Source: Flavobacteriales bacterium (GTDB lineage Bacteria; Bacteroidota; Bacteroidia; Flavobacteriales_F; PHOS-HE28). From it: a stretch of 64,000 nt of DNA. The DNA lies in contig JAEUTB010000188.1 of the NCBI GenBank assembly GCA_016787995.1, forward strand, positions 9,920-73,919, in the 5' to 3' direction. The position numbers were made by a program, and so were the translations under genes. Below the pieces are notes generated by a model. The model did not search any database. It saw nothing but the letters and a program-made list of their open reading frames with translations, and was not told where the DNA came from. Position 1 is the first letter of the stretch. Each line of letters begins with the position of its first letter. Below are positions 7,818 through 9,054 of this stretch, piece after piece.

Positions 7818-8849
7818 TCAGCCGAACCTGGTGGAGTAATCGTTGAGGTCGAGAAGTAGACGTTGCTCGCGCAAGTTGAGTGATCCTGCTCTTGTTATGT
7901 GTTTGATCAGTTCCAGGGCCGCGATGTTGGCCATGATGGCATTGCTTGCGGCCATGGTGGGAGCGATGCTGCGGGCGTTGAACGCGGCGATGTTCTCCGG
8001 TTGCGCATCGATCAGGTCTCCCCACGAACTGAAGAGTTCCTCGTAGCTGCGTGTATCCGGGCCCAACAAGGGGCCGATCAAACCCTGCGTGCTCATGTAG
8101 CCGCACTTGATCACGTGGTAGTTGAACGCGATGCGTGCTTCGCTGATCCAGTTCACCAGTTGTACGGGTTTGTCGGCGCTCAGAACGATGTGTCGCACTC
8201 CGGGCTGGGCGTTCATCAGGGCATTCCACGCTGCCGCGGTGCTCACGAACATCTCGTGCACGATCACCTTGCAGCCCGGGGCGATGCGCAGGATGCCGTC
8301 GCGCGCAGCCTCCACTTTGGCCCTGCCCGTATCGCTGGCGCCGAACAGGATCTGCCGGTGCAGATTGCTCTCTTCCACCAGGTCTCCATCCACCAGCACC
8401 AACGAGCCGATGCCTGCTGCCGCAAGTGACTGCGCCATCTGGTGGCCGATACCACCCATGCCGAGGATGAGCACCTGTGCGTCGGCCAATCGCTGTTGCC
8501 GGGCCAGGGACCCAAGGTGGTCGCTAACGGGCTCCAACGCATCGAAGAGGAGCAGTTGCCGATCGAAACGAACGTCGCAGCTGGTCTTCGGGTCGAAATG
8601 TTCGATGAGCTTCAGGGCTGAAAGACGGTCCATCAGTCTATCGATCATTGCCGGGGGAACATCAAGGCGCTGTGCCAGTTCGGCTCTGGCCCGCTCTTTC
8701 GTCGGTGCGTCGCTCAGTACGACAAGCAGCTCCTCGAACGCACGGCCTGCGGGTAGCGAAGCTTCGTCGTCAAGGTCCCTCACCACACGGATGAGTTCTC
8801 CTTCTTGCAGGAAGCGCAAGTGTCGTTTGAATCTCACGTGCCGGTGCAT
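7818..8849 (-). CDS. ThiF/MoeB/MccB-family E1-like adenylyltransferase with N-terminal RRE/peptide-clamp-like domain
   Basis: E1 ATP loop [40 protein letters not shown], then GRAKVEAA and SADKP. The first roughly 95 aa resemble a PqqD-like winged-helix RRE. Only 3 isolated Cys, no CxxC pairs. Its stop lies 1 nt before the kinase ATG. Confidence 0.8.
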   Translation of the reverse strand: [343 protein letters not shown]

Positions 8850-8892
8850 GGATCGAGTTTACGGATCTTGCGATGGCACCTGTCGTACCCGC

Positions 8893-9054
8893 TTAGTTGC
8901 GATCCCATCCGCCGCGCTTGGGCGCGCCGTGCGCCTTGTCAGGCGCTGGCTGAACGGTCTCTGGTTTCTTCGGCTCATCGGCCTGGTTCGATCGCGCTGG
9001 CACGGGGGTACTGTTGATGCCCATGAGGAAAGCGATGAAAGCGATGGGGTTCAT
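8893..9054 (-). CDS. candidate precursor peptide (53 aa; 43 aa from ATG 9024) ending in C-terminal Asn
   Basis: Reads MNPIAFIAFLMGINSTPVPARSNQADEPKKPETVQPAPDKAHGAPKRGGWDRN-stop, on the same strand and 43 nt upstream of the E1-like gene. Support is positional only; no homology is claimed. Confidence 0.4.
   Translation of the reverse strand: MNPIAFIAFLMGINSTPVPARSNQADEPKKPETVQPAPDKAHGAPKRGGWDRN

Follow-up and report, generated by a model that had tools for sequence, protein, structure and literature searches.

The microcin C (McC) systems are the closest described relatives of the gene pair considered here, which consists of a short precursor peptide gene and an adjacent gene of an MccB-like enzyme on a 64,000-nucleotide stretch of a Flavobacteriales genome assembly (GCA_016787995.1, contig JAEUTB010000188.1, positions 9,920 to 73,919; this whole stretch is hereafter called the window and numbered from its first letter). 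In the MccA/MccB pair of E. coli (microcin C7), as in the window, an enzyme composed of a peptide clamp and an E1 adenylation domain is encoded next to a precursor gene ending with an Asn codon. The minimal McC arrangement is mccABC, including an MccC-type export pump of the major facilitator superfamily (MFS) or the ATP-binding cassette (ABC) type, and to our knowledge nearly all described MccB-like enzymes serve the production of Trojan-horse antibiotics and are invariably accompanied by a pump and an immunity gene. The window pair also resembles the mcc-like systems of Synechococcus CC9605 and Yersinia pseudotuberculosis, which have long precursors (approximately 50 aa with tandem duplication in Synechococcus), and MccA peptides of 42–56 aa, tandemly duplicated, are adenylated by the cognate MccB (PMC4010828). 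Unlike the McC systems, the window cassette contains no MccC exporter, no MccD, MccE or MccF and no zinc site, the identity of its enzyme to MccB is approximately 23%, and it combines an invariant RGGWDxN motif and a hydrophobic leader with a tetratricopeptide repeat (TPR) sensor kinase and a LuxR-type regulator in a Bacteroidota host. The pair is a conserved and previously undescribed variant of an MccB-type system for a peptide made on the ribosome and modified after translation (RiPP), wired into a two-component cassette.

Several other systems share single features with this locus. IndF of S. pneumoniae, a ThiF-like enzyme fused to a RiPP recognition element (RRE), links the C-terminal carboxylate to N1 of the Trp indole three positions earlier, in the sequence W-Y-F-I (PMC12150305). 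The window pair is similar to IndF/IndA in having an RRE-fused ThiF-like enzyme, a core at the extreme C-terminus and a Trp three positions before the last residue, whereas the IndA core ends with Ile or Val, and the ind cluster encodes an M16 protease and a transporter but lacks a kinase gene. In the EnfB/enterofaecin (WWIII-type) and GrcB clusters of Firmicutes, ThiF-like maturases are likewise linked to kinase/response-regulator or quorum-sensing genes, and such kinase-linked ThiF RiPPs have been proposed, but not shown, to be signaling peptides of quorum sensing (PMC11256085, PMC12250964). However, the EnfB/GrcB systems are Gram-positive, with several ABC transporters and receptors of the AgrC/LytTR type, and their cores are hydrophobic or contain Cys, the chemistry being the formation of a macrocyclic imide or thiolactone. 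PaaA, which acts on PaaP (pantocin A), is a clamp-fused E1 working on a ribosomal peptide, but it modifies an internal Glu-Glu-Asn. By analogy only, the cassette may be compared with staphylococcal agrBDCA, in which the precursor, maturase, kinase and regulator form one autoregulated unit, the N-terminus of the precursor is hydrophobic or amphipathic, and paralogues or alleles vary in the mature-peptide region. In contrast to agr, the cassette has no homologue of AgrB, maturation would depend on ATP and take place in the cytoplasm, a kinase with a predicted periplasmic TPR domain would stand in for polytopic AgrC, and the regulator is of the LuxR type (LytTR in sister locus L030).

Bacteroidota members, the RGGWDxN core and the TPR-kinase operon are absent from two 2025 reviews of ThiF-like RiPP enzymes (PMC12250964, PMC12596934), from the McC mining study (PMC4010828) and from the Trojan-horse review (PMC8323819), which mention neither Bacteroidota or flavobacteria nor histidine kinases or two-component systems. 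Full-text literature searches on the GGWD motif, on mcc-like clusters of Bacteroidota and on MccB linked to a kinase returned nothing relevant. A RefSeq-based survey such as PMC12150305 may have missed the family, all of whose members are metagenome-assembled genomes (MAGs).

Precursor Peptides in the Window and in Homologous Loci

The precursor gene (8893–9054, minus strand) consists of 53 codons and TAA and encodes the peptide MNPIAFIAFLMGINSTPVPARSNQADEPKKPETVQPAPDKAHGAPKRGGWDRN, in which the stop follows directly after the C-terminal Asn (…GGWDRN). The hydrophobic leader (codons 1–15, MNPIAFIAFLMGINS; 9010–9054, minus strand) contains no Lys or Arg and is presumed to be the clamp-binding element; a linker separates it from the core motif RGGWDRN (8896–8916, minus strand), whose terminal Asn is the presumed modification site. 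An identical 53-aa product is annotated by NCBI in the Flavobacteriales MAG as hypothetical protein JNJ91_10120. The reading frame is open upstream as far as an ATG at 9111; this extension is unconserved as protein and overlaps a conserved DNA palindrome. Since the N-terminus MNPIA… is common to all precursor orthologues and NCBI calls exactly the 53-aa product, the true start is assigned to 9054 and to neither 9024 nor 9111, as judged from the sequences.

Scanning of one genome per GTDB species gave 22 loci with E1 relatives at 37–76% identity, all of them in MAGs of uncultured Flavobacteriales, Saprospiraceae or unclassified Bacteroidota, and further contigs for the family were added through exact-protein look-ups. 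The initial annotation of the window, made from the sequence without database searches, had proposed looking for an Asn-terminated ORF upstream of the enzyme gene in homologous loci; same-strand small ORFs of this kind, in one to four tandem copies, were found in all 22 non-redundant loci with DNA upstream of the E1 gene. They encoded 46 homologous peptides of 51–61 aa, with one exception in length. The ending was GGWDxN in 44 peptides (x = R, H, G, Y or L), GIWDRN in one and GGLDRN in one, mostly with Arg before it, so that the terminal Asn was retained in 46 of 46 peptides and Trp in 45; no ending of the GGWDxN type was found elsewhere in the homologous loci or in the 64-kb window. Tandem paralogues of one genome varied mainly at x, as in the four copies of L023 (…GGWDRN, …GGWDHN, …GGWDLN and …GGWDYN).

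Conservation was concentrated at both ends of the peptides. Mean pairwise identity between loci was 0.71 for the first 14 residues (within the clade) and 0.85 for the last seven, and 0.15 for the linker of approximately 30 residues, which is unconserved, rich in Pro, Lys, Thr, Glu and Gln, and predicted to be disordered. Lys and Arg were absent from the first 16 residues in 46 of 46 peptides, and Glu occurred in about half of the leaders, often at position 4. Since basic residues were missing from this segment and the leaders listed contained no lipobox Cys, the leader does not look like a canonical Sec or lipoprotein signal, although a gene of an S26 signal peptidase adjoins the precursor in one sister locus. 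Compared with L001, the window showed seven synonymous and no non-synonymous changes in the last 11 precursor codons, against five synonymous and 13 non-synonymous changes in the linker (codons 16–42); purifying selection thus acts on the protein sequence at both ends of the precursor. The small ORF can be taken as a real gene whose pairing with the E1 gene goes far beyond chance, and there is very little doubt that the pair represents a peptide and its maturase. A transcription attenuator or terminator of the mccA-mccB kind was not found between the precursor and E1 genes (folding z = -0.24, no minus-strand terminator-like site).

MccB-like Enzyme

The gene of the MccB-like enzyme (343 aa; 7818–8849, minus strand) starts 43 nt downstream of the precursor ORF, and its product is publicly annotated as a ‘ThiF family adenylyltransferase’. 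Two domains were distinguished, namely, an N-terminal peptide-clamp/RRE-like domain (residues 1–95; 8565–8849, minus strand), delimited by an AlphaFold2 (AF2) model and superposition on MccB, and a ThiF/E1 adenylation domain (residues 116–337; 7839–8504, minus strand; Pfam ThiF E = 2e-36). The ATP/Mg residues G130xGGxG135, D154, D156, N162, R165, Q166, K178 and D226 are intact and aligned to the corresponding MccB positions; in the core family and the sister clades, no variation was seen at GxGGxG, D154, D156, N162, Q166 or K178, and almost none at R165 and D226. Because the nucleotide- and Mg-binding residues are conserved and matched to those of MccB, the protein is predicted to be a live enzyme and not a docking scaffold.

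The best sequence match in the PDB was E. coli MccB (E = 3e-26, 95.6 bits, residues 117–321), which covered the whole adenylation domain, including the substrate-binding half. It was followed by PaaA (E = 7e-19, 71 bits), which matched residues 93–194 only, and by ThiF (E = 4e-16, 62 bits, residues 114–315), while IndF, the sequence of which was taken from the supplement of PMC12150305, matched only in the ATP-binding region (51 bits, residues 103–206). The AF2 model, built from an alignment of 27 family members (A1), had a mean predicted local distance difference test score (pLDDT) of 91.7 and a predicted template-modeling score (pTM) of 0.89, with strands at residues 4–33 and helices at 36–78. 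In a Foldseek search against the PDB, 24 MccB chains stood at the top over ~345 columns with template-modeling (TM) scores of 0.74–0.80 (0.79–0.80 for the full-length superposition), followed by PaaA (0.74) and by ThiF, MoeB and UBA5 (~0.57). In the model, the N-terminal strand/three-helix domain superposes on the MccB ‘peptide clamp’/RRE. MccB is thus the nearest solved relative by both sequence and fold, in line with the MccB-like nature given in the initial annotation, and grouping with ThiF/MoeB or with docking proteins of thiazole/oxazole-modified microcins (TOMM) was not found.

Every sequence-level statement of that annotation proved correct on re-check: translation reproduced the Asn-terminated 53-codon ORF on the minus strand, and the 343-aa ORF with its ThiF ATP site 43 nt further on was likewise recovered. 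The enzyme has, as described, three isolated Cys and no CxxC pairs, the CYEC of MccB being aligned to SYEE. The claim of a PqqD-type RRE at the N-terminus stands at the level of fold (AF2/Foldseek) but not of profiles, since the first ~95 aa gave no significant match to PqqD or any other Pfam family at E ≤ 1 and only sub-threshold winged-helix matches. C249 (KCGYM), the only invariant Cys of the core family, was examined as an E1-type catalytic thioester Cys and rejected, as it is unconserved in the sister clades.

These comparisons also bear on the explanation that the locus is not a RiPP system at all, with the enzyme being a ThiF/MoeB sulfur-carrier activator or an inert TOMM docking protein and the small ORF spurious. 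Generic ThiF/MoeB models of NCBIfam do match the protein at E = 1e-22 to 1e-29, but mainly in the nucleotide-binding part and with scores far below the curated cut-offs (e.g., 91 vs. 275 bits): the ThiF/MoeB/MoeZ equivalog models reached 78–101 bits against cut-offs of 266–647, and the TOMM ‘ocin_ThiF_like’ model TIGR03693 reached 18 bits against 562. Neither PF02597 (ThiS/MoaD) nor a rhodanese domain was detected by Pfam in the E1 protein or the products of neighboring genes, YcaO was absent from every locus examined, a modeled N-terminal clamp is present, and the small ORF occurs in every locus under purifying selection. This explanation can be regarded as effectively refuted.

Two-Component Genes and Candidate Operator Sites of the Cassette

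The stop codon of the E1 gene lies 1 nt from the start codon of a sensor histidine kinase gene (5999–7816, minus strand). According to Pfam and hydropathy, the kinase comprises a signal peptide, a TPR domain of ~330 aa, a single transmembrane segment (residues 357–375), HisKA_3 and HATPase_c; because the TPR domain is preceded by a signal peptide and followed by the one transmembrane segment, it is predicted to be periplasmic. The gene overlaps by 4 nt with that of a LuxR/NarL-type response regulator (5349–6002, minus strand; Pfam Response_reg and GerE), which is 58–90% identical across homologous loci. From this gene arrangement, the precursor, E1, kinase and regulator genes appear to constitute one four-gene operon in which the kinase and regulator are translationally coupled. 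The kinase–regulator pair was found downstream of E1 in ~22 of 25 distinct core loci, sometimes with two kinases. In L023, the whole cassette sits inside a menaquinone gene cluster, which it interrupts, and this suggests that it is an autonomous module.

The sensor domain of the kinase linked to E1 constitutes a separate orthogroup, with 29–77% identity across genomes and at most 27% identity to three paralogous kinases of the window. These paralogues belong to a second two-component cluster (29725–36449, minus strand), in which tandem genes of three TPR-HisKA_3-HATPase kinases (34416–36449, 32321–34432 and 30393–32357) are followed by that of a LuxR-type regulator (29725–30396) 60% identical to the E1-linked one; neither an E1 gene nor a GGWDxN peptide was found at this cluster. 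A 470-aa cytoplasmic TPR-like protein encoded upstream in the Saprospiraceae locus L025 was considered as an alternative receptor and rejected because it was not conserved in L016 or L017.

The upstream region of the operon contains the palindrome TACCATCCACATGGTA (TACCAY-N4-RTGGTA; 9106–9121), a candidate operator situated 52 nt upstream of the precursor ATG. The form TACCAT-N4-ATGGTA has one exact match in the 64 kb, at this position (expected number, 0.05). In the window and in L001, L003, L005, L006, L007, L009, L011, L013 and L022, TACCAY-N4-RTGGTA was found 51–56 nt upstream of the ATG of the first precursor; in L002, L023 and L026, this distance was 72–101 nt. A second palindrome, TACCATACAAGTGGTA, with one mismatch (5260–5275), lies between the regulator gene and the neighboring gene of a cargo protein of the type IX secretion system (T9SS), and in L001, L007, L011, L013 and L022 a corresponding site likewise stands between the regulator gene and a secreted- or surface-protein gene. 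The alignment of eight upstream regions (A3) revealed three footprints amid diverged DNA: the palindrome, as an invariant block; a distal conserved box, CACCATACCATCTTCATCATA (9155–9175, minus strand), containing a third TACCAT half-site; and the box CACTTTTG (9074–9081, minus strand), 24 nt downstream of the palindrome. At ~100 nt upstream of the precursor, matches with two mismatches were present in the window, L003 and L007 and with one mismatch in L009, while CAyyTTTG was conserved in all eight aligned regions. The box CACTTTTG matches the -7 promoter element of Bacteroidota (TAnnTTTG); a scan for sigma-70 promoters gave no matches, as expected for Bacteroidota. We infer that the LuxR-type regulator would bind these palindromes and control its own operon together with flanking genes of surface and secreted proteins.

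Accessory Genes and Sister Clades of the Enzyme

The initial annotation had pointed to the lack of MccC/D/E/F-like genes nearby, and this was borne out within ~10 kb of the pair, where no transporter, GNAT, S66 peptidase or methyltransferase gene was found (Pfam, NCBIfam, tblastn); tblastn gave no S66 or methyltransferase homologue in the window as a whole. Across ~25 core loci, no exporter or known immunity gene (MccC/E/F, HinT, S51) was present in or next to the operon; no transporter was in or beside it in the window, L023, L026 and L033, and neither an M16 protease nor a transporter was seen in the surveyed loci. In the window, pumps of the resistance-nodulation-division (RND) and ABC/HlyD types are encoded 28–37 kb from the pair. 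They comprise a TetR-regulated RND efflux system (37078–43319, plus strand) with an outer membrane efflux protein (OEP), an HlyD-type adaptor and an AcrB-type pump, and an ABC/HlyD-type exporter pair (45153–48191, minus strand).

A profile search of 1.84 billion representative proteins returned 407 at E < 1e-30, with the core E1 family above 490 bits and a shell of full-length relatives, 26–31% identical to the window protein, at 220–316 bits. The neighborhoods of eight shell relatives (L029–L036) were inspected. Precursors ending with …SRCRGGWDGN (L030; 27-aa precursor with a non-hydrophobic leader) and …RRHGGWDAN (L036; leader of the same non-hydrophobic type) were found, the former locus being flanked by two TPR-His_kinase/LytTR pairs. 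The precursor genes of L029 (…SRGGWDRN) and L034 (…RRGGWDRN) were convergent, and in L033 there were two precursors, one ending with …CRGGWDGN and the other with …GVSGDKN, and behind them genes of a TPR-HisKA_3 kinase and of a LuxR-type regulator. In L031, a precursor with a hydrophobic leader ended with …RELDGGN, and genes of an S-adenosylmethionine (SAM) methyltransferase and a Peptidase_S66 followed E1; L032 (…CWILFDN) had the same features together with signal peptidase I and a polytopic membrane protein. No precursor was found in L035, where the contig of 3.6 kb contained only ~260 nt upstream of the E1 gene. All eight sister-clade peptides found ended in Asn and most kept GGWDxN, whereas LDGGN, SGDKN and ILFDN, as well as GGLDRN of the core clade, have no Trp at position -3. 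The hydrophobic leader was usual in the sister clades, also with non-GGWD cores, the exceptions being short and non-hydrophobic (MLEAQMLMEWLQS…).

Some further features of these loci should be mentioned. In L032 (5711–6742), signal peptidase I (Peptidase_S26) and the polytopic membrane protein are encoded in one gene string with the precursor, E1, methyltransferase and S66 genes, which hints that the hydrophobic leader might be cleaved by a signal peptidase in some clades. A bPH/GRAM-like protein of 115–120 aa is encoded directly after E1 in L030 and L036, and two related copies occur in L029. Next to the latter locus (9047–12585) stand a fragment of a phage integrase and genes of a TIR-domain protein and a holin, which may indicate that it is part of a mobile element or prophage.

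MccF, the peptidase that confers immunity to microcin C, belongs to Peptidase_S66, and methyltransferase domains decorate the nucleotide in the mcc systems of Bacillus and Yersinia (PMC11256085, PMC12250964). The S66/methyltransferase link, seen only beside the non-GGWD cores of L031 and L032, is among the points that speak for a classical microcin-C-type Trojan-horse antibiotic, together with the closeness of MccB by fold and sequence, the universal terminal Asn and the existence of long, tandemly duplicated MccA precursors (PMC4010828). Under this explanation the peptide would be nucleotidylated, exported by an unlinked pump, taken up by competitors and degraded there to a non-hydrolyzable aspartyl-nucleotide blocking aspartyl-tRNA synthetase (AspRS), while the part of the kinase and regulator would be limited to the control or autoinduction of production, comparable to that of NisK/R in the case of nisin. 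However, the ~25 core loci are devoid of an exporter or known immunity gene in or next to the operon, RGGWD is strictly conserved, whereas McC carrier peptides vary freely, and a sensor system stands at the heart of the operon. The RGGWDxN core, the tandem paralogues differing at x, the coupled TPR-kinase and LuxR genes and the palindrome together point away from a classical exported antibiotic of this kind, which we regard as unlikely.

The invariant Trp raises another alternative. In a macrocyclization of the IndF/EnfB type, N1 of the Trp indole (alternatively, a nucleophile from the backbone or Asp) would attack the adenylated C-terminus and form a W-D-x-N ring, i.e., a cyclic autoinducer resembling an autoinducing peptide (AIP). 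This is the sole proposal that accounts for the Trp kept in 45 of 46 core-clade peptides; the distance from Trp (i) to the C-terminus (i+3) is exactly the spacing of the IndA W-Y-F-I ring (PMC12150305), and ThiF RiPPs linked to kinase/regulator genes and having a Trp-containing C-terminus (WWIII type) occur in Firmicutes (PMC11256085). Yet Asn is conserved beyond Trp, namely, also in LDGGN, SGDKN, ILFDN and GGLDRN; the substrates of IndF and EnfB have hydrophobic C-terminal residues; and with IndF only the half that binds ATP can be aligned (51 bits), the alignment to MccB extending through the half that binds the substrate. Macrocyclization is accordingly given a low probability.

The leader types of the sister clades bear on the further possibility that the peptide is a small membrane-anchored kinase regulator similar to MgrB or SafA, with its N-terminus in the inner membrane and an E1-modified basic tail in the cytoplasm, so that export would be unneeded. 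The acidic or neutral N-terminal side and the net positive tail fit an N-out/C-in orientation, no exporter is present, and the peptide and kinase genes are probably tightly co-transcribed. Nevertheless, the hydrophobic stretch of ~13–15 residues is short for a transmembrane helix, sister GGWDxN peptides have short non-hydrophobic leaders (MLEAQMLMEWLQS…) or no adjacent kinase, and the conservation of the leader follows E1, as that of a clamp-binding element would. Such a role seems highly improbable.

Neighboring Genes

The operon is flanked on the downstream side by a gene of a secreted protein with a T9SS C-terminal sorting domain (3577–5298, minus strand; Por_Secre_tail sub-threshold, 23.6 bits vs. 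27), a candidate member of the regulon. In the window this gene has the palindrome upstream, and the same T9SS cargo neighbor was found in L001, L007 and L018. Divergent from the precursor gene is a gene of a YadA-head-repeat surface protein (9170–10654, plus strand; Pfam YadA_head), the true start of which is probably near 9224 and which shares the operator-containing intergenic region with the precursor operon; its orthologues occupy the same position in L001 and L007, and related genes were located near L011, L018 and L022.

The 494-aa product of 9170–10654 is a paralogue of the YadA-head-like repeat region of a 988-aa protein encoded at 15505–18471 (minus strand), which also contains long collagen-like Gly-X-Y tracts. 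Collagen-like and YadA-type genes recur beside the cassette in L001, L007, L011, L013, L018 and L022, and the equivalent neighbor in L033 encodes tail-fiber-type PTL_trimer and Peptidase_S74 domains. Between the two genes, a 1394-aa protein (11248–15432, minus strand) contains many repeats of the GDVNGDGYSDV type, FG-GAP-like by eye, and its C-terminal ~180 residues resemble those of the T9SS neighbor. An ORF at 21057–27938 (minus strand) encodes a 2293-aa protein. In L023 and L026 (e.g., L026:3164–9387), arrays of paralogous secreted proteins of 383–397 aa, with a weak β-helix signal, are divergent from the precursors and share the ending …DLDLxRNDxGCxGGSxSRDxFDDP; these loci also encode proteins of 499–536 aa composed of AEYFWDxDPGxGNG repeats, and neither group had a significant Pfam match.

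An asparaginyl-tRNA synthetase (AsnRS) gene (1976–3460, minus strand) lies ~1.9 kb past the end of the cassette; the L007 neighbor is 94% identical, and the gene is absent from most loci. Since its conservation is confined to close relatives and McC would require a different synthetase, its interpretation as an immunity or target copy was rejected, and it probably reflects housekeeping synteny. A specificity subunit of type I restriction-modification is encoded at 53760–55769 (minus strand), and the stretch of 52–56 kb has a GC content of 0.55 against ~0.61.

Discussion

The conserved upstream ORFs and the kinship with MccB support the initial annotation of the locus as a RiPP pair composed of a short Asn-ended precursor and a clamp-fused MccB-like E1. 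We consider it probable that maturation of the MccB type acts on the terminal Asn of the precursor inside an autoregulated two-component cassette. According to this scheme, the clamp of one subunit of the E1 dimer would bind the precursor leader, and the linker would allow the C-terminus to reach the ATP site, where the carboxylate of Asn-53 would be adenylated. The side-chain amide of Asn could then close on the acyl-adenylate, giving a C-terminal succinimide, which a second NTP may, as in MccB, turn into an isoAsn N-P nucleotide. Chemistry proceeding through the Asn side chain is favored because of the universal Asn, the sister loci with S66 and methyltransferase genes and the MccB-like substrate-binding half of the enzyme. 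Complete nucleotidylation of the McC type is less certain here than the succinimide, since no GGWDxN locus has an immunity gene or pump, and a nucleotide adduct as the specific product is proposed with reserve, its probability being put somewhat below even. The LuxR-type regulator would act at the palindromes, providing autoregulation and control of the flanking surface and secreted genes.

The role of the product is more tentative. Speculatively, the peptide in its modified form, or a core-containing piece of it, could enter the periplasm and serve as the ligand of the TPR domain of the kinase, closing an agr-like loop. Peptide quorum sensing or autoinduction in Bacteroidota would then involve a signal derived from the RGGWDxN end, cyclic-imide, nucleotidylated or Trp-cyclized, and sensed by the TPR kinase; the regulator would activate its own operon and the adhesin and T9SS-cargo genes through TACCAY-N4-RTGGTA, and the paralogues differing at x would be signal variants. 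This proposal is suggested by the logic of the four genes, by paralogues differing at one core position and by the lack of antibiotic accessory genes, and also by the linkage of E1 to TPR kinases of two catalytic families (HisKA_3 in the core clade and His_kinase/LytTR in L030). A signaling role of the cassette is nevertheless rather doubtful, and the same applies to quorum sensing by such a peptide, which we advance as a minority possibility.

A number of observations weigh against maturation at Asn within a self-regulating cassette, or against individual parts of this scheme. With regard to the chemistry, the zinc site of MccB (two CxxC pairs) is absent from the window enzyme, the MccB reaction does not explain the invariant Trp and Asp, and W-D-x-N has the spacing of the IndF substrate, with Trp at i and the C-terminus at i+3. 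With regard to the product, neither an exporter nor MccE/F, HinT or S51 immunity genes were seen in any of the GGWDxN clades, and no route of export to the periplasm is evident, the leader being without a basic n-region and not a canonical Sec signal. With regard to sensing, three Saprospiraceae loci carry the peptide/E1 pair without an adjacent kinase, TPR-HisKA_3 kinases are expanded in the genome, three of them (30393–36449) standing without any E1, and the sensor domain is 29% identical where E1 is 66% identical and the core invariant, which is unlike simple recognition of the core.

Thus, the MccB architecture and the rule of the terminal Asn are found here in a sensor–regulator operon without a pump or immunity gene. 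A 53-aa peptide and a 343-aa enzyme with a constrained core of six residues constitute a small, defined pair suited to finding a new C-terminal modification. If the signaling role is true, the system would be an entry to peptide communication in Bacteroidota and would provide the first ligand for the large family of TPR-type sensor kinases of this phylum (FimS-like architecture), as well as a new chemical class of autoinducer.

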